Positions 1-10,419 are shown, counted from the first letter of the stretch. The stretch is DNA of 64,000 bases from a virus (IMGVR_UViG_2695420521_000002:35400-99399), one strand, 5' to 3'. A program made the numbers and translations. The notes: generated by a model not told the origin, from the letters alone.

Positions 1-1366
1 GGTGAGTGCAGGTTGAGTTTTTTCTTCATGTCTTCCTTTGACATCACCTTCCATTGACCTGCGGAATTTATCCCTACCGGTATCTTTGATGCTTCCTCTA
101 TAGTCGCAGCCCCCTTATCAAGCCGCATACGCCCTGATTTTACAGCTTCTGCCGCCTGAATATTCGCGAAAGCGCGCATATCGAAATAAAGGCTTTTATC
201 TTCGCGGCTGTGCATCTTTTTACCCCAGCGGATACGCTGGACGGTAATACCATAGCGTTCGTACATCAGATCAGCCGTCGATTTCCCCAAGCCATCGCCA
301 TCAATAGCTATGGTTATGTTCGGGAACCGTTCTGGGTTACATTCTGCGAAAATCTTGGCTGCTAACTGCGTTTCTGTAACGTCTGTGTATTCCAGCATAC
401 GATAGCTGATTACACGGCGTTTATTTCGCTGGCCGGACACCATCATGATATTGATAACTGACTTATCTCGTCCTGTGCCACCAGCAACGTCAACACATGC
501 AACCCAGCCCCATCCTTTGGCAATCTTGACCTTCCGCCGCGTCGCCCGCTCAACCTCATCACGACCAAGAAGAAAGCCATCTTGAGATTTGGGAAATTCA
601 CCACGTACTTTGATCATGTACATGGGGTTATCACGACCGCCATACTCCGCAAGTTTTGCTCGTATAAATTTTGCATCTACAAGCGGAGATTCTTCACTAT
701 TCAGTATTATCGCAGTAAACAATCCATCAGGATTTCCCGGGCGAATAGCTAGTCTGTGGTGTGAATCGTAGAAATAGCCTGAAGGTCGCGTAGGCTGGGA
801 AAGAAGCAGAATACGGTTATCCTTACCGGTCAGCGCACCTGTTATCACACTGAATGCTTTATCACTCACACCCGACGCTTCGTCGATGATATACAAGAGA
901 TGATCGGCGTGTTCACCAGCCAACGCCTCCTCATTTCCGGGGCGACAGGACTTTATCAATATTGTCCAAACACCCTTGCCAGTCACCTCAAAAAAAGACG
1001 TTTCTGTAAGAATGAAATACTTCGACAACCACGGGAATCTGCTAACAGCAGTAGCCCAATTGCTCTTTATGTATTTGAAAATACCATCAAGGACTTGCTG
1101 TCTTTTGTTAGCGACCAGAATGACGCGAGCGCCGGGGAAAAACATGATGAAGAGTATTGCAATGATACTCGTCATATCCGACTTACCAGTACCATGGCCG
1201 GAGGTCACACTTGTCCAACTGCCGTCCTGCTGCGTGGACTCAATGATCTCATCCTGCTGCCAGGTTGGTGTCTTCCCAAACAACACATCAGCGGCCGCAA
1301 TCCAGTCATAACGATATAGCGCCACCAGCTCGCGCCAACGTGGGTCCGTTACGCAACTTCTGGCCA
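1..1366 (-). CDS. pacB: terminase large subunit PacB; C-terminal end cut by window edge
   Basis: Minus-strand ORF starting at ATG 1364-1366 directly after pacA stop; my translation shows P-loop SGHGTGKS and LYIIDEASG; open to position 1. Confidence 0.8.
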
Positions 1367-2560
1367 TTAATCATCATCCCCGTACAGTTTGCGGGTAACT
1401 TCTTCGTCTTCCTCCTCGTCTTCGTCCAGATCCTGTTCAAGCCATGCTTCGTTTGATATGCCTTCCGCATCGACATCACCATAACCACCTGTATCGACGA
1501 TATCGGCAATTTCTTCTCTACGATGCTCAATCCACAATGCGGCATCAGCGCGGCGGCTGGCGGCCCGTTCTCGCGCGATTTTATCCAGATCTTCAAGTGA
1601 TGGAGCGCCAGATGCTGTTTGGTTTTCCTCATCATCGGTATTGGTCTTAGGAGCACGCAGATCGGCTTTGATTTGCTCCAGCATCAGGGGCGGCACTTTT
1701 CCGCCATGCGCCTCGATGAATTCAGCAGCTTCCAGCACTGACCAGTTATTTTCACGCTTTCGTTCGTATGCCAGCTTAACAATGCCAGCTTGCCCCATAG
1801 ATAAAGCGTGCTTTTCCGCCTCCCGGCTTTCTTTTCGATAGTTATTCCGGATGCTATAAATGGTGTTGATCAGGCTGCTTATCTGCGCGGAACAGCTGTT
1901 TAGCATGCTCGCGATACGGTATTCAGGCGGAGTACCTTCATCATCGTCTTTTTGCTGATCGCGCATTTCCTGCACCAGGCGAATACACGTATCCCGGGCG
2001 TTCTCCAGCATAAGGAGATGAGAAAGAGACTTTTCAAGAAGAGTGGTTTCCAGAACATCGGCCCCGGACCGACGCAACATAGCGCGCGCGGCCTTCCGCG
2101 CTTCAACGTTATCTATCAGGTAATCGCCAGCTTCGAATTCAAAGCGTTCACCATCATCATCCAGGGTGTCGCGTTCCAGGCGATCACGTAAGGTCCGGTG
2201 GGCGCGGGTGATCACGTCATGATCATCTGAACGATCATTTATGCGCTTATTTTGGCGCTTCGCATTCTCGACTGCGGCACTGATAACGGCATTAACTCTT
2301 TGTTTTTCCGCTATTTCAGCCGCAATGTGATCACCTGCATGTTGATCATTAGAGTGATCAATGATCATGCTTTTTAGTGGCTTCCTGACTGGCTTATTTG
2401 GCTTGCGGCTGTCCGCTGTCCTGGTGTCTTCTTTAAAGGCACGGAGATAACGACGTGCAGTATTAGGGTTAAGATTAAACTCGGCGGCATACTGTGCGAT
2501 GGTGTAACCACCATCTCGCGCCAGGCGAGCAAAATTCTTCTTGTGATCGTCCCAGGTCAC
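1367..2560 (-). CDS. pacA: terminase small subunit / pac-recognition protein PacA
   Basis: 397-aa ORF just upstream of pacB; contains clustered TGATCA hexamers typical of the P1 pac site; position after lpa as in P1. Confidence 0.8.
2181..2367. other. pac: pac packaging site: two clusters of four (T/C)GATCA hexamers about 90 bp apart
   Basis: Hexamers at 2181, 2209, 2220, 2232 and 2328, 2343, 2355, 2362, all containing GATC, inside the 5' part of pacA. Confidence 0.7.
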
Positions 2561-2641
2561 TTATGCTTCCTTTCGTAAAAACTCTTTTTGACGCGAGGGT
2601 AACGAAAGTCACATGTCAAAAGGCCCGGAACGGGCAAGCAA

Positions 2642-3094
2642 TCAGATACGTGCGGATGTGGCATTACCGTAATGACGGTGCTGACGGGCCACCTTATTGA
2701 AAAGTTGACGCGCCATTACCCAAGGCTGGTGCTCCCGGCGTTCCTTTTCGTCCTGCGTCATATAGAGTTCGTTCTGGAGTTTTTCATCAAACCGGCGCGG
2801 CGCGCGGCTGCGGCGAAAGAATTCAGGATTCAGAGAGTGGATCTGAAATCTGCGTGGGCGTGTACTGTCATCAATCAAAACAGACGAATACTTAGACACA
2901 GCGATAGCCTTTAAGCGCAGATAAACATCGCGCTTATCGACATCCAGATGCGGGTATTCCTTTTCAAGAATTGCTGCGAGTTCTTTCGCTGATAGAAGAG
3001 ATTTAGTGCGGATCATGTAATCCGCAATCTCGTACGATGTTATTCGTGAGTGATTTATTTCCATGAAGTGGCGTCCCTGCCAGTTAAGTAACAT
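2642..3094 (-). CDS. lpa: late promoter activator Lpa (gp10-like)
   Basis: 150-aa ORF between pdcB and pacA; C1 operator-like 17-mer just upstream; synteny with P1 phd-doc-pdcA-pdcB-lpa-pacA-pacB. Confidence 0.65.
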   Translation of the reverse strand: MLLNWQGRHFMEINHSRITSYEIADYMIRTKSLLSAKELAAILEKEYPHLDVDKRDVYLRLKAIAVSKYSSVLIDDSTRPRRFQIHSLNPEFFRRSRAPRRFDEKLQNELYMTQDEKERREHQPWVMARQLFNKVARQHRHYGNATSARI

Positions 3095-3164
3095 CCTGTC
3101 ACCTACTGATTAGCCCATGTCAACTAATCAACGTGGAATATAATACCCTCGATTAAAGAAATAG

Positions 3165-3181
3165 CAATACATTAGAGCAAT
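3165..3181 (-). promoter_or_regulatory. C1 repressor operator-like site upstream of lpa (Op86-like)
   Basis: Plus strand CAATACATTAGAGCAAT; about 14/17 match to reverse complement of P1 C1 operator consensus ATTGCTCTAATAAATTT. Confidence 0.55.
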
Positions 3182-3182
3182 T

Positions 3183-4226
3183 TTATCTAACGTTCGACGA
3201 GTGACTTGTGATAGCGCCGACTCCAAGCGCGTAATCAAAGAACAATCGTTGATGCATCGCCAGCCTACCGTGCGTCTTCTCCCAATTATCGCGGTCACGC
3301 TCAATATCACGCTGGCATGACTGGCACAGAGGAATAGCATAAATGTCATGCGCGCATAATCGACTATGACGAACGATATAAGGCGTAATGTGAGCGCCAG
3401 CTCCCGCAGCTCCACACCCACAGCATGGACGGGAAGCAACAAAGTCCATGTACTCAGGTAATTTTAGCGATTGCAGTTTTGGTATTTTGAAATGCGCCAT
3501 ACCTGGGTCGGAGTCAACATCCACTGGACATACTTTTGCGCGCATCGGCGCGGCACGTTCTTCCATCATCTGAACATATGCTGTAGCGCGATCGTCATAC
3601 GGGCGAATATCCGCCTCTTTCAGAGGTCCGCTATCCTGCGTTGCTGCCTTAATCTTATTTATTGATATACGGCAGACTTCTTCCGGCATCAAGTGCATCA
3701 TGTCGCGCATGAAAGCCCACCAGCACAGTTCCTGAATACTTAAATCATGGCCATCTGAAAGCCCCATTTCCTGACGGGCGACATCCAGTATCCAGTTAAC
3801 GCGATTATTATGCAGCGTTTCTTTCAGCTCATTAAAACCACGCATCCTGTAATGGTTATCGTGATGCCAGCACAACAACACCGCGCTATTGTCTCGTTCT
3901 GCGTGGACAATATGGTTGTCACACCAGCTACGATCTGCGGCCTGGCATTGCCCCTCTTTCCTGCGCAACCACGCCACCAGCGCGTCAATTCCACCAATAC
4001 GGCGAAACAGTTCATCGCTGTTAAAAAACGGCTGCAACGCCTCATTTGTTGCCATAGTTTGCTCGGAAACAACGAGGCCGTCGTCCATGTGCTCGATTAA
4101 CTCACGCGGCACCGGCTCCATAATAAATTTACGGCCAGCCTCCACCAGCTTTCTGACTTCCTGATCCACTTTGAATGTGGCGACGCCAAGCTCTTTTTGT
4201 ACAAAGGGAGTAATTACGGCTTTCAC
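3183..4226 (-). CDS. pdcB: PdcB-like protein (post-doc), unknown function, Cys-rich C-terminal region
   Basis: 347-aa ORF in operon position after doc-pdcA; symbol by synteny only. Confidence 0.5.
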
Positions 4227-4253
4227 ATCACACCTTTCATCACTGATTGGGCT

Positions 4254-4454
4254 TTATCTGCTGCCCGGCATTCTCTGTTTAAGCACAACCATTTCCTGAC
4301 GGCATAACACAGCAATAGCAGTCCTGGCTCCAATTTGCTTACCAACCAGGTATTGCTTTACCTCGCGGCGACTCACGCCATCAAGAAGCATCTTTAACGC
4401 TTCACGGGACAATTTGTTGTATTTACGTGCCATTAATCTACTCCGCGGAACCAT
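4254..4454 (-). CDS. pdcA: PdcA-like small protein
   Basis: 66-aa ORF overlapping the 3' end of doc by 17 nt; symbol by synteny. Confidence 0.45.
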
Positions 4455-4818
4455 ACAATCTACGTAACGTGTCGGCGACAGAAGATACAGATATCTCGCC
4501 AGTTGCAGCGCCTACGGTAAGGTCTGCCAGTTCAGGTGAATCAAATACCTGCACCCCGTTACGGCGTAGAAATAGCAGCGCACTGTTTAGCGCGGTACGC
4601 TTATTGGCATCATTGAATATATGCCCTCTCGCTGTAGCCACCAGGTAGGTGGCGGAGACTTCGAAAAGGTCGGTGATCTCTTCGTAGGCAACTCTGGCCT
4701 GAACTCTCCCGATAATGGCCTCTGCCCTACCCGGATCAGACATTCCCGGCAGGCCGCCGTAGCGGCTTATATTCGCATCATGAAGCGCAATAAGTTCTTC
4801 CGGTGATATATGTCTCAT
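4438..4818 (-). CDS. doc: Doc toxin (Fic/Doc family)
   Basis: 126-aa protein [22 protein letters not shown]...; start ATG shares one nucleotide with phd stop (TAATG). Confidence 0.95.
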
Positions 4819-5045
4819 TATCGGTTAACCAGTTCCTTGTTGGTGGAGTCCAGGGTGTCAAACAGGGATGCAAATTCAGCATCCAGCGCCGCTTTTTTGT
4901 AGGCTTCGAAAGTAGCCTTGCTGACAATTACTGCTGGCTCACGGCCTCTGCGGGTGATTTCAACCTCTTCCCCGGCTTCAACATTGTTGAGCACTTCAGA
5001 AAGGTTGCCACGCGCGGTACGGAAGTTAATGGATTGCATAAACAC
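4818..5045 (-). CDS. phd: Phd antitoxin (prevent-host-death); true start probably ATG at 5039
   Basis: Translation [49 protein letters not shown]... matches P1 Phd as I recall it. Confidence 0.95.
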
Positions 5046-5080
5046 CTCGTGTACTCGTTATGTGTACACAATTATAAACT
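5046..5080 (-). promoter_or_regulatory. phd-doc promoter/operator: -10 TATAAT overlapping GTGTAC-type palindromes
   Basis: Minus strand TATAAT (plus 5071-5076) followed by TGTGTACACA (5061-5070) and CGTGTAC (5048-5054). Confidence 0.55.
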
Positions 5081-5439
5081 TCACAGGCATAAAGCACCAG
5101 CACTTTGCAGCTTAAATAACCGGACAATAATCAAATTCCCCACTTCGGGCATCATTGATGACATGAGTGATCACACCAAAAACAGCATTACTGCCCGTAC
5201 ATCCTAGTGTTGACGTGGATACATCCACTATCTTTGGCTATCCGCTGCCCACATGAAGTAGCTCACTGATGGATATCGAAGTAACCTTGCTGAAAATTAC
5301 CGCTAGTTATTCATACTCCGCCATTCCTCCTATGCTTCCATACACCGAGTTCATGTGTTTTTAATCGACAGTAACCATCTGAAACATAGATAAGAGAATC
5401 TAAAACGAAGGTCTACTCTATGCTAAATAGAAAGGGAGG

Positions 5440-5484
5440 CTCAATAGAATAATGGCGTTGAGGAAGTCAACGCCATTATTATTT
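5440..5484. terminator. hairpin terminator downstream of invasin-like gene (bidirectional-looking)
   Basis: 11-bp perfect stem AATGGCGTTGA/TCAACGCCATT (5451-5477) with A/T-rich flanks on both sides. Confidence 0.55.
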
Positions 5485-5510
5485 AAGATTGAGTCATTCT
5501 AAGCAAAAAA

Positions 5511-8500
5511 TTATTCCGCTTCCTTATCATTCGCCTCTACAGCATTAATGGTTATTGTTACCGGTTCCATTTCGTATCCTCCATAGTTTAGAGAGTTGAA
5601 TGTTAATGTATATTTTCCTGGCTTAGTGGTGCTAAATTTGCGTGTAATTTTACCGTTTACAAAATGGTCGGATTTAGAAGGCAGGAATTCATAATCCTCT
5701 TCTTTCACATTGTCAGGTGCCTGAATCTCAACCCACATAGTGCCCCCGACAGGATTATTTTCCGCCATAAGAGTAATCTCCAACGTTGCGGTTGTTGTCC
5801 CATCCGCCACCAGAGATGTAACATCAGACGATGCGGCAAGCACTGCGTTTTTGTAATCCACAACGAATCTGGACTCAGCTGTTTTAGTCGATGTTTGACC
5901 ATTAGTCTGCTTAACTGTAGCCGTCACTGTATACGTCGCAGCCGTTGTTGTTGTAGCAGTGAAAACAGCCAGCCCTTGCTCATCTGTTGTAGCCCCCCCG
6001 TCAGGTGACAGAGTTAATTCTCCCGGACTGGTACTAGCACTGGCACTCAACGTAACCTCACTCCCTTTCAGGAGGTTGTTATTAGCATCAGTTACCGTAA
6101 TCTTGTATGTTTGTTTATCTTTACCATTTGCCAGAGCATTGTTATTAATCACCTCTATGCTAGAAATGGTTGCTGTAGCTTTGTCAGCCACAAACGTAAT
6201 CGTCTTGGTATCTGAAGGCTGCTCATTTTCTGTTGATGCCGTGACCTCATACGATCCAGCAATCACGGAAACTACTTGTAGTTCCGCTTTACCCTCATCG
6301 TTGGTCCTCACCCAAATGTGTTTCCCAGTAATAGGTCTGACCCCCTTTGGTAGATTAAACGTCACCAACTCTCCAGGAACTGCATTGCTATTTTTATCCT
6401 TAACAATAGCCGTCAGCGTAAAGGCATCACTGCCATTTGCTGCTCTTTGAGAGCTATCGTCAACCTGAAGGCTTACCTGCCCAGAACTGGCATCCGCACT
6501 GAACGTCACCGTAACCGTCTTCTGAGCACCATTCACCGAAGCAGTAATATTGTGTTCCCCAGCAACCGTTGACATCAACTCAATATCAGCTTTACCCGCC
6601 GCATTAGTTGTTACCGTATTCCCTGTCTTGCTGGTCACACCCTGCGGTAAAGTCAGCGTGACATTTTGCCCCTGTAACGGGTTGCCATAGGTATCCACGA
6701 CGGTCAGAGTTATCTGGTTAGCAGACTGTCCATTAGCCAGTTGGTTGTTAACCTTCACTGTCATATCACTGATTACTGCCTGAGATGTGTCACCTGCAAC
6801 ATTCAGCACCAGAGGCTGGGCAACGGCATTTTGGCCGTTCACTCGCGGCATCACGATTAATTCACCCGCCGTAGTACCCAGAGAAATCTGCGCAGTCCAT
6901 GTTCCATCGCCATTATCTGTCCAATCTGATACCGACGACCCCGTAGAGGCTGCGCCCGATAATGACGGCGCTTCCGGGGTGATACCTGTTACTGGGTTGT
7001 CATTGGCATCTTTTGCTGACCAGATTGCCGTAAGCGTACCGCCAACCACAGGTTTATCCGAGGTCAGAGTGATAGTTGAGTGTTTGGCATCAATCGGCCC
7101 GGCAACAAACTTCAGCGTTTGTTGCAACAAGCCCAACTGATACTGCTCACTAAAGACACGCACAACAACATCTCCGGCACTGGTCGAAGAAACCGTGGCG
7201 CTGTAAATCCCAGGTTTTATCTCCGAAATAGTGCCAACGGTAACTCCGTTGTTGTCCTGCGGAACAAAGCGCAGACGGCTGGCTTCTCCCGTCACAGCGT
7301 TGCCATCGGTATCTACCGCTGTAAGCGTCAGCGTGTAGGATTGCTGACCATCAGCAGTCACATCATCTGAAAGCTCACTCACACTCAGAGTGGACTTTGT
7401 CACATCCATCATTGTGGCACGCAAATCGGCAGTAACGGTTTTGCTCATACCATCAATGCTCACAGTAATGGTTGCTTCACCTGATTGCGTACCAGTAGTG
7501 AAGACTGACTGATACACCCCTGCTTCAGTTTCGGTGAACTCACCTAATGTTGGCTGTGTCTGTGATTTAGCAGACCTAAGAGCCCGCGTTACAATGTTTC
7601 CGGCAGGTTTAAACGTCAGCTCAGTCTTGATCTGATCTTTCATACCCGTGATTGGTTGTCCCTCGGCATCGCGGAGAGACAGCGCCAGCGTTTTTTGCGA
7701 GCTACCATTAGCAAGCATCTGGATACTGTCCTGTCCGTCAAGCGTTAGCGCAGAACGATCGGCACTCATACTCGCACCGGTAATGACCACCTGTGTCTTT
7801 ACACGCTTCGAGGCATTGCCTTTGTTATCATATGCTACCGCAGAGATCGCGTAATAATTGTCTTTGCCTGCCTGATAAGCCGGGAGCGTCACTTGCCACT
7901 GGTTGCCCTGCCCGGTAATTTTACCGCCCGCAGCCAGCAAAGACGGCGCCTCCCACTGCACATTTTTTAGACCGTGGGTTGCTTTACTGACCACAAGCCC
8001 CAGGGATACCGTCTGCCCGCTCTTACCTTCAATACGCTCAGGCAGAGCAATACGGATCACTTCAGATTTGCGGTATTCAAGAACGATGTTGTTATTACGC
8101 TCAACCAGGTCATAGCGGCTGCCTGTCAGCACACGGCGCTCGCGAATGCTATCCGTATCGAGTTGTTTTTCCAGAGGTTCGCCAATCCGGTAGTTAATTT
8201 CCAGGCCCAAACGGGTGTCATTCTGACCGCTCTTGCCCTGCTTATGCTCTGCGCTCAGGGTCAGAAGAGGTACAGGCGTGTAGTTCACCCCAGCTGAAAT
8301 AGCATGTGGGTTTTTCTGGCGTTTATCTTTACCAAACAGTCCTACCTCATCGCCGTAATACTGTTCATACATCAGGCTTGCGCCAAGCTGTGGCCAGGCC
8401 GGTAAATAGCCCTCAGCACGGATATCCCAGCCATTCGCCGGACGTTCCTGATAATCCTCAACATCCGGCGATTTTTTCCAGCCAGAAGCCCGGATATAAC

Positions 8501-9146
8501 CATTGGCGCTCAGTTTAAGATAATCACGCCAGTATTCCGTACCAATACCAATGCGGGTATGACTACGGGATAAATCATGGTCAATGAAGGTATTCACCCC
8601 CGCCATCCAGTCATTACCTGAGAAATGGCGCCAGCCGAAACCAATATTTGACTGAGTGCGATCGTCAGTGCGATGTATTGCCCCCTGAGTGAACAGCATA
8701 TTTGTCGGCGTGTCATATATCGGATAAAGCATTTCCAGCGAAGAATCCTTCAGCGAGAAATCTTTATCGGCATTCAGTTTGACGCGCGCGGTGCCATATT
8801 TCCCGAGCCACTCCTGGATTTCCTGGGTGGCCTTAGCAGTAGCCATTCCGGTAACAAAGTTGCGAGTCGCATCGCTATCCGGCTGACTGCTTAAAAATTT
8901 ACCGGCATTCGCGGCAACCGACGCGATATTTTTTTCTGCATTATTGTCAGTAGCAACCGCAGTATTTTCCGTAGTTAGACGTGGCAAAGTCGCATTATGC
9001 GCCCGCGCTGCCATTGTCGGTGTAAAAGTGACAGCCAATGGAAAAAGAACCTGAACAGAGATGTTTGCCCATGCCACACATCTAGCCAAGGCGGAATAGC
9101 GGAAACGTTGTTGTTTATAAGTTTTATTTAAACGTAACATTGACAT
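5511..9146 (-). CDS. inverse-autotransporter adhesin, invasin/intimin family, with many tandem bacterial Ig-like domains
   Basis: 1211-aa ORF; N-terminal hydrophobic leader, Trp/Tyr-rich beta-barrel-like region (GFGWRHF, GYIRASGW), then long Thr/Val/Ser-rich repeats typical of Big domains. Confidence 0.75.
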   Translation of the reverse strand: MSMLRLNKTYKQQRFRYSALARCVAWANISVQVLFPLAVTFTPTMAARAHNATLPRLTTENTAVATDNNAEKNIASVAANAGKFLSSQPDSDATRNFVTGMATAKATQEIQEWLGKYGTARVKLNADKDFSLKDSSLEMLYPIYDTPTNMLFTQGAIHRTDDRTQSNIGFGWRHFSGNDWMAGVNTFIDHDLSRSHTRIGIGTEYWRDYLKLSANGYIRASGWKKSPDVEDYQERPANGWDIRAEGYLPAWPQLGASLMYEQYYGDEVGLFGKDKRQKNPHAISAGVNYTPVPLLTLSAEHKQGKSGQNDTRLGLEINYRIGEPLEKQLDTDSIRERRVLTGSRYDLVERNNNIVLEYRKSEVIRIALPERIEGKSGQTVSLGLVVSKATHGLKNVQWEAPSLLAAGGKITGQGNQWQVTLPAYQAGKDNYYAISAVAYDNKGNASKRVKTQVVITGASMSADRSALTLDGQDSIQMLANGSSQKTLALSLRDAEGQPITGMKDQIKTELTFKPAGNIVTRALRSAKSQTQPTLGEFTETEAGVYQSVFTTGTQSGEATITVSIDGMSKTVTADLRATMMDVTKSTLSVSELSDDVTADGQQSYTLTLTAVDTDGNAVTGEASRLRFVPQDNNGVTVGTISEIKPGIYSATVSSTSAGDVVVRVFSEQYQLGLLQQTLKFVAGPIDAKHSTITLTSDKPVVGGTLTAIWSAKDANDNPVTGITPEAPSLSGAASTGSSVSDWTDNGDGTWTAQISLGTTAGELIVMPRVNGQNAVAQPLVLNVAGDTSQAVISDMTVKVNNQLANGQSANQITLTVVDTYGNPLQGQNVTLTLPQGVTSKTGNTVTTNAAGKADIELMSTVAGEHNITASVNGAQKTVTVTFSADASSGQVSLQVDDSSQRAANGSDAFTLTAIVKDKNSNAVPGELVTFNLPKGVRPITGKHIWVRTNDEGKAELQVVSVIAGSYEVTASTENEQPSDTKTITFVADKATATISSIEVINNNALANGKDKQTYKITVTDANNNLLKGSEVTLSASASTSPGELTLSPDGGATTDEQGLAVFTATTTTAATYTVTATVKQTNGQTSTKTAESRFVVDYKNAVLAASSDVTSLVADGTTTATLEITLMAENNPVGGTMWVEIQAPDNVKEEDYEFLPSKSDHFVNGKITRKFSTTKPGKYTLTFNSLNYGGYEMEPVTITINAVEANDKEAE

Positions 9147-9823
9147 AATTTCTTGATGAACGCGTTAACGAACATTTGCAACTGCGAGTAAAAACATTTG
9201 CTTTCAGAAATTTCCGAGAGAAAACTCCTAGGGGGCGCGGATGCTATCACAAACCAAAAAGTGTAACAATACATGAACCAGAGAATTAATGCTTGTTATT
9301 TATCTGTCACCAATATGTTGTGATTGGTTAGCGTCAATGTTATTGGTTATGTTTACCAAATAATAAGAGGGAGTATTTCAATACATGAGAGGATGATTTT
9401 TTTAACATGGGAAGTGAAATCTTTTCCATTATTACATGGTTTATAAATTATAAAAAATGCCCCAATCCATGAATAACGCCTTTAGAGAAATACCCCCCCA
9501 TTTCTATATAATAACTTTGATGTAATGGACGATATATTAGAGCATGTGGCACGCAATCAGATAATAACAATCTTTTCCTTGGATAAATTAGAGATTAATA
9601 GTGCGTCATATTCACGACATAATGGCACACAAGGATTTCTAGATTATTGTTTATTACAATCGATACTATTAAGGTTTTTTTGTTGATAGAGAACAGCCAG
9701 AAATAGATCGCGGCCATAATGATTTTGAATGCCGTGTTCATATTTTCAGCTCCTGTGATTGATTGGAAACATGCCGCGCCTTGCGGCATGTTTTTATTTT
9801 CACTTTCTCTGTTTTAAAAATCA
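9147..9823 (-). other. about 680-bp AT-rich ORF-poor leader upstream of invasin-like gene
   Basis: Visibly AT-rich; no credible ORF; contains a hairpin and borders a C1 operator-like site. Confidence 0.5.
9770..9798 (+). terminator. intrinsic terminator-like hairpin with T-run on plus strand
   Basis: CATGCCGC-gcctt-GCGGCATG followed by TTTTTATTTT. Confidence 0.5.
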
Positions 9824-9840
9824 AGATTTATTAGAGCAAT
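9824..9840 (-). promoter_or_regulatory. C1 operator-like site (16/17) overlapping stop codon of the 168-aa gene, facing the invasin leader
   Basis: Plus strand AGATTTATTAGAGCAAT. Confidence 0.6.
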
Positions 9841-10346
9841 TATTGTTGATAAAGAAGCGCATTTTCATACTCCCTGACCATTAACGTAAGCACGCCGTGC
9901 CTCCTGAAAACACGCGCCACTTCAATCTTATCTTCCAGCGCGAACGCGATTTTACTTAGACCAATTTTCTTAAGGAGATCAATCTTTGCTGGGCCGTCAT
10001 TTCTGTCATCGGTGGCAGGACGCATAGATAGCAAAGGCTCAGCCCCGTTTGTTACGTACTTCCGCAGCCAGGCTCGTGTTTTATCCCTTGCGATCTCACA
10101 GCGCCCGGTTACAAACCAGACCGTGTAAACGTTAAATAACTGGCGCACCATATCAATAACTGGAGTGATGGGAGCATCAGTGTCACAGGCAAGGTTAAAC
10201 TCGTTCCAGTGCTCTGTTAATGCACCTTTGCCAGGTGGTGGAAGCAAATGCAGCCTGTCTTCCGTTGCCTCTGATATCGTCCCATCAATATCGACTATGA
10301 CGATATACGGACGTTCCTGGTGTGCGTGTTTATTGAAAATACTCAA
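9840..10346 (-). CDS. HAD-superfamily phosphatase-like protein
   Basis: 168 aa; N-terminal IVIVDIDGTI (DxDxT) and downstream FVTGR motifs. Confidence 0.5.
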   Translation of the reverse strand: MSIFNKHAHQERPYIVIVDIDGTISEATEDRLHLLPPPGKGALTEHWNEFNLACDTDAPITPVIDMVRQLFNVYTVWFVTGRCEIARDKTRAWLRKYVTNGAEPLLSMRPATDDRNDGPAKIDLLKKIGLSKIAFALEDKIEVARVFRRHGVLTLMVREYENALLYQQ

Positions 10347-10419
10347 ATGCCCTCCTCATTGGACGAAAAAAATGCTGGTGGGACGCACTCCACCAGCATT
10401 AAAAGTGACACTGTAACTA

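Follow-up and report, generated by a model that had tools for sequence, protein, structure and literature searches.

In a 64,000-nucleotide stretch of viral DNA (IMGVR_UViG_2695420521_000002:35400-99399), which we refer to as the window, a gene encoding a large inverse autotransporter adhesin of the FdeC family lies on the minus strand between phd-doc and pap, in a backbone that closely resembles phage P1. A first-pass annotation of the window had called this gene an intimin/invasin-like adhesin and proposed that it was acquired as a promoter-gene-terminator unit. Positions given below are those of the window unless preceded by the identifier of another sequence (for example L001, which is P1, NC_005856). 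The gene, its domains and its surroundings are as follows.

4438..5045: phd-doc, one neighbour of the adhesin cassette
5199..9683, minus strand: acquired cassette of 4485 base pairs (bp), in place of P1 humD'-lxr-hot-upfO/N/M-pmgV/U/T (from the P1 homology breakpoints)
5511..9146, minus strand: FdeC-family inverse autotransporter adhesin gene, an intact single open reading frame (ORF) of 1211 amino acids (aa) (Pfam and solved-structure matches)
5520..7748, minus strand: seven tandem Ig-like repeats, Big_1/Invasin_D3 (iterated repeat hidden Markov model, HMM)
7758..8069, minus strand: first extracellular Ig-like domain (D00-type), residues 360-463 (match to the intimin D00 structure 6TQD)
8091..8915, minus strand: inverse autotransporter (IAT) beta-barrel domain, residues 78-352 (PF11924; matches to 4E1T and 4E1S)
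upstream of the barrel: putative signal peptide, residues 1 to ~50 of the adhesin
9840..10346: pap, the other neighbour of the cassette

The adhesin and its nearest relatives

The first-pass description of a 1211-aa inverse autotransporter with many Ig-like repeats was borne out by the ORF, the barrel, and the D00 domain with its seven repeats. The IAT_beta match (PF11924, residues 78-352) covers profile positions 3-279 of 279 with an E-value of 6.1e-109, and this region is also similar to known barrel structures, those of invasin (4E1T, E 8e-84) and intimin (4E1S, E 2e-73). The passenger matches the crystal structure of FdeC (4E9L, E 3e-138). At the N-terminus, basic residues are followed by the hydrophobic stretch CVAWANISVQVLFPLAVTFTPTMAARA, and the alignment to FdeC begins at residue 3. 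Pfam reports four Big_1 and seven Invasin_D3 matches, and an HMM built iteratively from the repeats of the protein itself places these at residues 467-577, 587-682, 690-781, 793-884, 891-987, 995-1096 and 1103-1209. Two features of inverse autotransporters are thereby present, namely an N-terminal IAT barrel and a tandem Ig-like passenger located C-terminal to it. The last domain (1103-1209) is itself an Ig-like repeat (E 1e-26 with the repeat HMM; 69% identity to the last repeat of FdeC), and Pfam finds no LysM and no Intimin_C or lectin-like C-terminal domain in the protein. The gene product is 100% identical to database protein P0001, which is annotated from the second ATG, an alternative start that gives 1209 aa.

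The proposed likeness to intimin and invasin holds at the level of the barrel family, but not beyond it. With intimin (Eae) and Yersinia invasin the adhesin shares the secretion type, the barrel fold and the Ig-like stalk, whereas it has no C-type lectin-like tip, no LysM and no context of Tir or the locus of enterocyte effacement (LEE). Its NCBIfam scores lie far under the cutoffs for intimin, invasin, IatC, SinH and YchO (for example, 397 bits for intimin_all with a cutoff of 1400, and 311 bits for Inv with a cutoff of 710), and NCBI annotates the gene only as 'inverse autotransporter beta domain-containing protein'.

The similarity to FdeC/EaeH is much more specific. The two share their domain order (putative signal peptide, then IAT barrel, D00 and tandem Big_1/Invasin_D3 repeats), and both are without LysM and lectin domains. 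The N-terminal 466 residues, which comprise the signal region, the barrel and D00, are 89% identical. In the repeats, however, the proteins differ: canonical FdeC has 1415-1417 aa and, with the same repeat HMM, nine repeats, versus seven in the 1211-aa adhesin. A domain-by-domain matrix pairs the seven one-to-one with FdeC repeats 1-3 and 6-9 at 69-92% identity, and FdeC repeats 4-5 (790-883 and 887-987) have no counterpart. The best local BLASTP alignment of the adhesin, which is 205 aa shorter, with FdeC has about 66% identity. Outside the coding sequence, both genes have a long upstream region, and a 3′ hairpin and the final 29 nucleotides (nt) before the ATG are conserved between them, but beyond those 29 nt the leaders are unrelated. 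The genomic setting also differs, as fdeC is chromosomal (in strain SMS-3-5 it is flanked by a helix-turn-helix gene and aldo/keto reductase genes), whereas the adhesin gene lies in the phd-pap interval. Since neither the repeat number nor the chromosomal locus is that of FdeC, we classify the adhesin as an FdeC-like paralog rather than FdeC itself; database sources are themselves divided, some labelling proteins at 97% identity as FdeC and others not. Judged by its domains and alignments, the adhesin is a short, diverged FdeC-clade inverse autotransporter (type Ve secretion), and is neither an intimin nor an invasin.

The ORF is intact, with 1211-1213 codons, in all six carriers that we compared. 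Pairwise ratios of nonsynonymous to synonymous substitution rates (dN/dS) are 0.15-0.29 versus the five other carriers, and 0.27-0.29 between P1-type carriers. Together with the intact ORF, these values indicate purifying selection, and thus that the gene is maintained. The comparison of codon usage with the flanking phage genes, which had been suggested as a check, was uninformative: the adhesin gene has a GC content of 0.49 (0.47 at third codon positions), versus 0.45-0.51 in the flanking phage genes, and we therefore dropped the argument from composition. The only compositional outlier is the leader upstream of the gene.

A replaced block in a P1-type phage-plasmid

On either side of the cassette, window positions 4001-5198 and 9684-11000 are about 98% identical to P1. 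Between 10 and 60 kb, P1-type phages cover 86-90% of the window at 96-98% identity, and the covered part includes rep/par, ban and the genes for head, sheath and tail fibre. The window is also 100% identical to part of the E. coli record GCA_001286565.1 (CYGK01000014.1), a 99.4-kb draft contig that carries c1. By this homology, the backbone is that of a P1-type phage-plasmid (Punavirus).

P1 homology is last seen at position 5198 (L001 3699) and resumes at 9684 (L001 7137). Between these breakpoints P1 has 3437 bp, which contain most of humD, as well as lxr, hot, upfO, upfN, upfM, pmgV, pmgU and pmgT. As these 3437 bp are absent and 4485 bp are present in the same place, the cassette is a replacement, and not a simple insertion, a possibility (at 5100-9840) that alignment to P1 and P7 had been suggested to check. 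The interval is known to vary. Between pap and humD, P7 has approximately 7.7 kb of wholly different genes plus IS903, again behind a C1 operator, and the annotation of P1 records that type I restriction loci (EcoDXXI plasmid, R124/3 hsd) are bounded by the same P1 sequences. These contents identify the phd-pap interval as a known variable cargo site, and the fact that P7 also lacks the P1 version of the block suggests that the block is dispensable. All these occupants (P1 humD-pmgT, the P7 'hea' region, and the R124/3 and EcoDXXI hsd loci) share with the cassette a position between phd/humD and pap with a C1 operator, but they are phage accessory genes or a restriction system, whereas here the occupant is an outer-membrane adhesin. 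The adhesin is thus a new kind of occupant for a known variable site. The hsd junction noted in P1 is 33 bp from the junction here.

The features at the two ends of the cassette are the following.

5112..5287, minus strand: decayed humD/umuD-like pseudogene (tblastn fragments; five-way nucleotide alignment)
5288..5412, no strand assigned: spacer that separates the umuD remnant from the 3′ flank of fdeC type (sole other match in PLSDB: an E. albertii P1-type plasmid)
5448..5480, minus strand: hairpin with a perfect 14-bp stem and a 5-nt loop (arms 5480..5467 and 5461..5448; dG -18.6 kcal/mol)
9595..9741, minus strand: hybrid small ORF of 48 aa, the first 19 codons from a P1 ORF upstream of pmgT and the remainder cassette DNA
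9626..9683, no strand assigned: 58 bp at the right junction (no match outside P1-type carriers)

The humD/umuD remnant is of P1 type over its 3′-most ~90 bp, and switches at approximately 5195-5205 to the type found in a second family of phage-plasmids, related to SSU5 and described below; further upstream it has two internal deletions and a frame change. The nucleotide alignment thus identifies the left junction as a crossover inside humD/umuD. The adjoining spacer (5288-5412) has no match in the SSU5-type loci compared. At the other end, P1 has an unannotated hydrophobic ORF of 28 aa (MNTAFKIIMAAIYFWLFSITFGGIVAHG; L001 7108-7194, minus strand) with a strong AGGAG Shine-Dalgarno sequence, which ends just before the pmgT start. 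The right junction breaks this ORF after codon 19, creating the 48-aa hybrid, and from the sequences that meet there is non-homologous (illegitimate). Transposon-mediated acquisition was considered and rejected, as no insertion sequence (IS) or transposase is present within or beside the cassette in the window.

The hairpin on the 3′ side of the adhesin gene begins 31 nt past the stop codon and is 91% conserved downstream of chromosomal fdeC in SMS-3-5, and is native to fdeC. The first-pass annotation had seen here a perfect 11-bp hairpin terminator. The stem is indeed perfect, and in fact is 14 bp in length, but the bases that follow it are CTATTGAGCC. Because these contain no U-tract, the hairpin is not a canonical intrinsic (Rho-independent) terminator, and it was not among the sites listed by a scan for such terminators.

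The cassette is rare. The adhesin segment occurs in none of 50,697 phage-collection records, including P1 and P7, and the gene is acquired cargo, as had been proposed; inverse-autotransporter barrels occur in just two of these 'phage' records, neither a genuine phage genome. Among the ~1,280 plasmid records with matches to the gene or its flanks, a single one covers the whole query. This is p2RM9976, a closed IncY plasmid from E. albertii, which has the same left junction and an extra IS630-family insertion. The complete E. coli genomes searched, 5,426 in number, all lack the arrangement. In addition, a 96.7-kb IMG/VR contig is colinear with window positions 1-16144 at 96% identity, and about nine E. 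albertii contigs encode a 98%-identical protein. An ortholog at this position in relatives of P1 was to have counted against acquisition, and such orthologs do exist (in the E. albertii IncY plasmids and the IMG/VR contig). Yet all alleles of the P1-type carriers are 98-100% identical to one another, and by sequence these carriers are a small lineage from one shared acquisition, which is not evidence that the gene is ancestral to P1.

Among the E. albertii P1-type carriers, an IS630-family element (HTH_23/DDE_3) lies beside the adhesin gene (L002 6060-7211; L011 12040-13071). The element is absent from the window and from L018, so its insertion in the E. albertii plasmids was a later event. 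These E. albertii carriers also lack phd and part of doc, such that the addiction module is disrupted while the adhesin gene is intact.

Adhesin islands of SSU5-type phage-plasmids

An island that resembles the cassette is found in SSU5-type (pHCM2/Cyrano-like) phage-plasmids such as p108_MLI108-3 and B156. It has a gene of the same family, a homologous leader and a umuD homolog immediately downstream. However, its carriers belong to another phage-plasmid family (with a siphovirus-type tail, dnaE, metG and apbC), and the island includes genes for PerC and an MprA-like MarR protein, homologs of which were not found anywhere in the window. The carriers are E. coli and E. albertii elements of 108-118 kb (the contig of E. 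albertii B156 is 147 kb) that encode siphovirus-type tail genes, a tape-measure gene, dnaE, a primase and a ligase. As this backbone has 97% identity to phage Cyrano (pLF82) and 78% identity to SSU5, we assign the carriers to the SSU5 type. Their gene order is DUF4942 - PerC - MarR - leader - adhesin - umuD-like - apbC - metG, and their adhesin alleles comprise 92-97%-identical proteins of 1210-1211 aa and a 70%-identical form of 1414 aa, that is, both seven- and nine-repeat forms.

PerC-type regulators are activators of the intimin/LEE regulon, and the PerC/MarR/adhesin block of SSU5-type elements may be a self-contained adhesin-plus-regulator island. The regulator-gene region lies at 6503-7465 in L007, L008 and L009, at 10511-11473 in L003, and at 6967-7464 in L006. 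A PerC gene is present in L003 and L007-L009, and none was called in L006 or L010. For the MarR protein, a role as a SlyA/RovA-type anti-silencer was considered, but its best NCBIfam match (MprA) is under the cutoff and its SlyA match is weak, and we make no such claim.

Three observations lead us to infer that the transfer was from an SSU5-type to a P1-type element. First, SSU5-type elements hold the full allele range and both repeat numbers, whereas the P1-type alleles form one tight clade. Second, umuD is native to the SSU5-type backbone: Cyrano, CMS-2020a and PhiR41_1, which have no adhesin gene, retain metG-apbC-umuD (in Cyrano, Ea22/Ead-like genes lie at the position of the adhesin island). 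Third, P1-type sequence gives way to SSU5-type sequence within the window's humD/umuD remnant. By the most economical route, the cassette would then derive from the SSU5-type variable bay PerC - MarR - leader - adhesin - umuD. One end would have been joined to the P1-type element by crossover within humD/umuD, and the other by an illegitimate join in the small ORF just upstream of pmgT, with the loss of nine P1 accessory genes, and with MarR and PerC left behind.

The humD genes of P1 and P7 and the umuD genes of SSU5-type elements have 82-84% nucleotide identity. Elsewhere in the bays, patches of 82-87% identity (an Ea22-like gene and umuD-adjacent sequence) are shared between P7 (L016 4446-4564 and 7684-7918) and Cyrano (L017 13221-13339 and 10725-10975). 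Such patches in humD/umuD-adjacent bays suggest recurrent exchange between P1-type and SSU5-type elements at this site. Both types can carry a large, intact outer-membrane adhesin, which would be exchanged between them via a shared umuD-flanked bay.

Possible expression and role of the adhesin

The region between the adhesin gene and pap contains the following features.

9147..9625, minus strand: donor-type AT-rich part of the leader (70-74% identity to the MarR-adhesin spacer of SSU5-type phage-plasmids)
9241..9269, minus strand: candidate extended -10 sigma-70 promoter, TTGTTA, a 17-bp spacer ending in TGA, and TAGCAT (conserved in six of six leaders)
9684..9840, minus strand: P1-derived region by pap, the upstream part of the leader (157 bp, 100% identical to P1, L001 7137-7293)
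9764-9796: hairpin in the P1-derived region
~9796-9839, minus strand: predicted promoters P1pmgT and P2pmgT (P1 annotation)
9840..9824, minus strand: C1 operator Op88/OpmgT, sequence ATTGCTCTAATAAATCT (P1 annotation)

The first-pass annotation described an AT-rich leader of ~680 bp as the gene's own. The leader (9147-9839) is 693 bp in length and has 34% GC, but it is a composite of the 157 bp from P1, the 58 bp at the junction, and the SSU5-type-like part at 9147-9625. The idea of a promoter-gene-terminator unit could not be sustained, as the upstream 157 bp are the C1-operator/PpmgT region of P1, the 3′ hairpin has no U-tract, and MarR and PerC were left behind. What the gene appears to have retained is the candidate promoter in the donor-type part. 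In an alignment of six leaders, the ~95-nt 5′ untranslated region (UTR) that would follow this promoter is nearly invariant, though the leaders overall are only 70-74% identical.

We favour, with a probability of approximately 0.7, the hypothesis that the adhesin is expressed conditionally from its own promoter, making this element an adhesin-converting phage-plasmid whose adhesin was acquired from an SSU5-type element. By homology, the protein would be taken into the periplasm by a Sec signal peptide, its N-terminal barrel of 12 strands would insert in the outer membrane, and the eight Ig-like domains (D00 and the seven repeats) would be threaded out as a stalk to the cell surface, where it could mediate adhesion or biofilm formation as described for FdeC. 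E. coli inverse autotransporters, once expressed, promote biofilm formation (PMC6714894). In lysogens, expression would most likely be from the conserved promoter in the AT-rich leader, and by analogy with chromosomal fdeC it would be subject to H-NS silencing and depend on temperature and pH. According to PMC11143625, chromosomal fdeC is silenced by H-NS, is induced at temperatures of at least 39 °C and at alkaline pH (Easton et al. 2014, cited therein), and is largely silent in laboratory conditions. The 34% GC of the leader fits control of this H-NS/temperature type. It is plausible that the gene alters host adhesion in lysogens.

Several observations call parts of this hypothesis into question. 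With regard to origin, reverse transfer, or a third element as the source, is possible, and the immediate donor is unsampled: positions 5288-5412 and 9626-9683 match nothing beyond P1-type carriers, and in a sensitive BLAST search of 72,556 plasmids, 5199-5445 and 9560-9700 match only the E. albertii P1-type plasmid. Moreover, the leader diverges far more from SSU5-type leaders (70-74% identity) than does the gene region (~94%; coding dS ~0.04-0.18). The leader also appears to be mosaic between different SSU5-type leaders, and its divergence and mosaicism point to recombination or rapid turnover of the regulatory region. With regard to expression, the candidate promoter, recognised by its conservation, was not listed by a consensus promoter scan, no obvious Shine-Dalgarno sequence precedes either adhesin ATG, and the absence of MarR and PerC from the window means that the gene may be poorly expressed or misregulated. 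Even the sign of any phenotype is uncertain, since deletion of fdeC raised adhesion in one avian E. coli strain (PMC11143625).

The gene could instead be a silent passenger, carried in a dispensable bay without its regulators and with no phenotype in the P1-type backbone. That MarR and PerC were left behind would fit, as would the rarity of the configuration (one of the ~1,280 matching plasmid records and none of the complete E. coli genomes) and the laboratory silence of chromosomal fdeC. We nevertheless consider this unlikely, as all carriers examined have an uninterrupted ORF of 3.6 kb, with dN/dS of 0.27-0.29 among P1-type carriers, and as the IS630-family element of the E. albertii plasmids spared the adhesin gene while phd-doc is missing or truncated.

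Expression might also be coupled to prophage induction, by read-through from Op88/PpmgT upon C1 derepression, which would make the adhesin part of an early lytic programme rather than of lysogenic conversion. Op88 and the predicted PpmgT promoters are kept at 100% identity, 680-690 bp upstream of the adhesin ATG and on the same strand, no intrinsic terminator was detected when the minus strand from PpmgT to the adhesin gene was scanned, and in the P7 annotation the corresponding operator controls the operon of this bay. However, the PpmgT promoters are predictions only, and a transcript from them would run on past the 48-aa ORF for about 450 nt that are AT-rich and untranslated, a condition that favours termination by Rho. 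Moreover, a conserved promoter-like block and 5′ UTR came along with the gene, an outer-membrane adhesin is of no obvious use to a cell about to lyse, and the leader has no P1 late-promoter box, so that we regard this coupling as improbable. A similarly doubtful, broader proposal holds that the adhesin is under prophage immunity control and made on induction and, separately, that umuD-adjacent bays serve as a common point of exchange, through which adhesin islands pass from one phage-plasmid family to another and also between E. coli and E. albertii. Were induction control real, a lysing subpopulation would turn sticky and aggregate with its neighbours, favouring transmission of the phage-plasmid.

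Phage particles often bear Ig-like domains, and the P1 annotation labels the bay 'putative morphogenetic', but it is very improbable that the protein is a virion component for decoration or host range rather than a bacterial adhesin: it has a complete outer-membrane barrel and an FdeC-type N-terminus, it is colinear with a chromosomal bacterial adhesin, and no genuine phage genome among the 50,697 records has such a barrel. Finally, the window's source is a draft assembly (CYGK01000014.1), but a chimeric contig of P1-type and plasmid reads is refuted by the recurrence of the same junctions in a closed circular E. albertii plasmid, several E. albertii assemblies and the IMG/VR contig, which at 96-98% identity are independent sequences and not copies.

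Within the 5′ UTR, an indel at ~9215-9235 distinguishes the leaders: L003, L006 and L007 have a small GC hairpin, GCCCCTGTTGGGGC, after which the next segment also differs, and this hairpin is missing from the window, from the E. albertii P1-type copy and from L010. This indel could be a regulatory difference. A P1 late (Lpa-dependent) promoter was sought in 5000-10000 using the -22 boxes of LPpac and LPhot, and was rejected, as none is in the leader; one-mismatch matches to the box lie only within the adhesin coding sequence or downstream of the gene. An Rfam match to GcvB small RNA (9614-9797, plus strand) scores 28.1 bits versus a gathering score of 42, and we treat it as chance. Since the match extends across the junction, and P1 by itself scores only 19 bits via the terminator half, a GcvB-like RNA is unlikely. 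On the plus strand, the hairpin at 9764-9796 is followed by TTTTTATTTT and resembles a good intrinsic terminator, convergent with pap.

Work on phage-plasmids has so far centred on their carriage of genes for antibiotic resistance and defence. In the open-access papers and preprints on phage-plasmids that we found, adhesin cargo is not mentioned, and this cargo is apparently rare and undescribed in the open-access literature searched, although the protein family and the variable site were already known. Surveys of virulence factors in phage-plasmids demand more than 80% identity to VFDB entries (PMC10879196), and would thus miss an adhesin that is ~66% identical to FdeC. A survey of E. coli inverse autotransporters mentions chromosomal genes only (PMC6714894). 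In E. albertii, the chromosome is reported to have only a distant FdeC homolog, at 27.6% identity, and the adhesin survey that reports it includes RM9976, whose plasmid carries the gene, yet lists only the chromosomal homolog (PMC11420993).

Given that no genuine deposited phage genome has an inverse autotransporter, the adhesin is unusual as phage-borne cargo. The advance is one of context and not of principle, as the protein family, its secretion mechanism and lysogenic conversion by adhesins are all established. If the adhesin is expressed, infection could change the colonisation or biofilm behaviour of E. coli and E. albertii.

IMG/VR has seven contigs with inverse autotransporters. Three predicted viral contigs from IMG/VR (L022, L023 and L024) encode distant ones, with 36-42% identity to the adhesin. 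The E. fergusonii plasmid pEF45-3 encodes a 1001-aa relative beside IS66 elements (L004 5645-8650), with ~87% DNA identity over window positions 6491-9177. Similar relatives are found on many E. fergusonii and Salmonella plasmids, which are conjugative IncF plasmids with aerobactin (iuc) genes. Thus, the FdeC-like clade also circulates on classical virulence plasmids.

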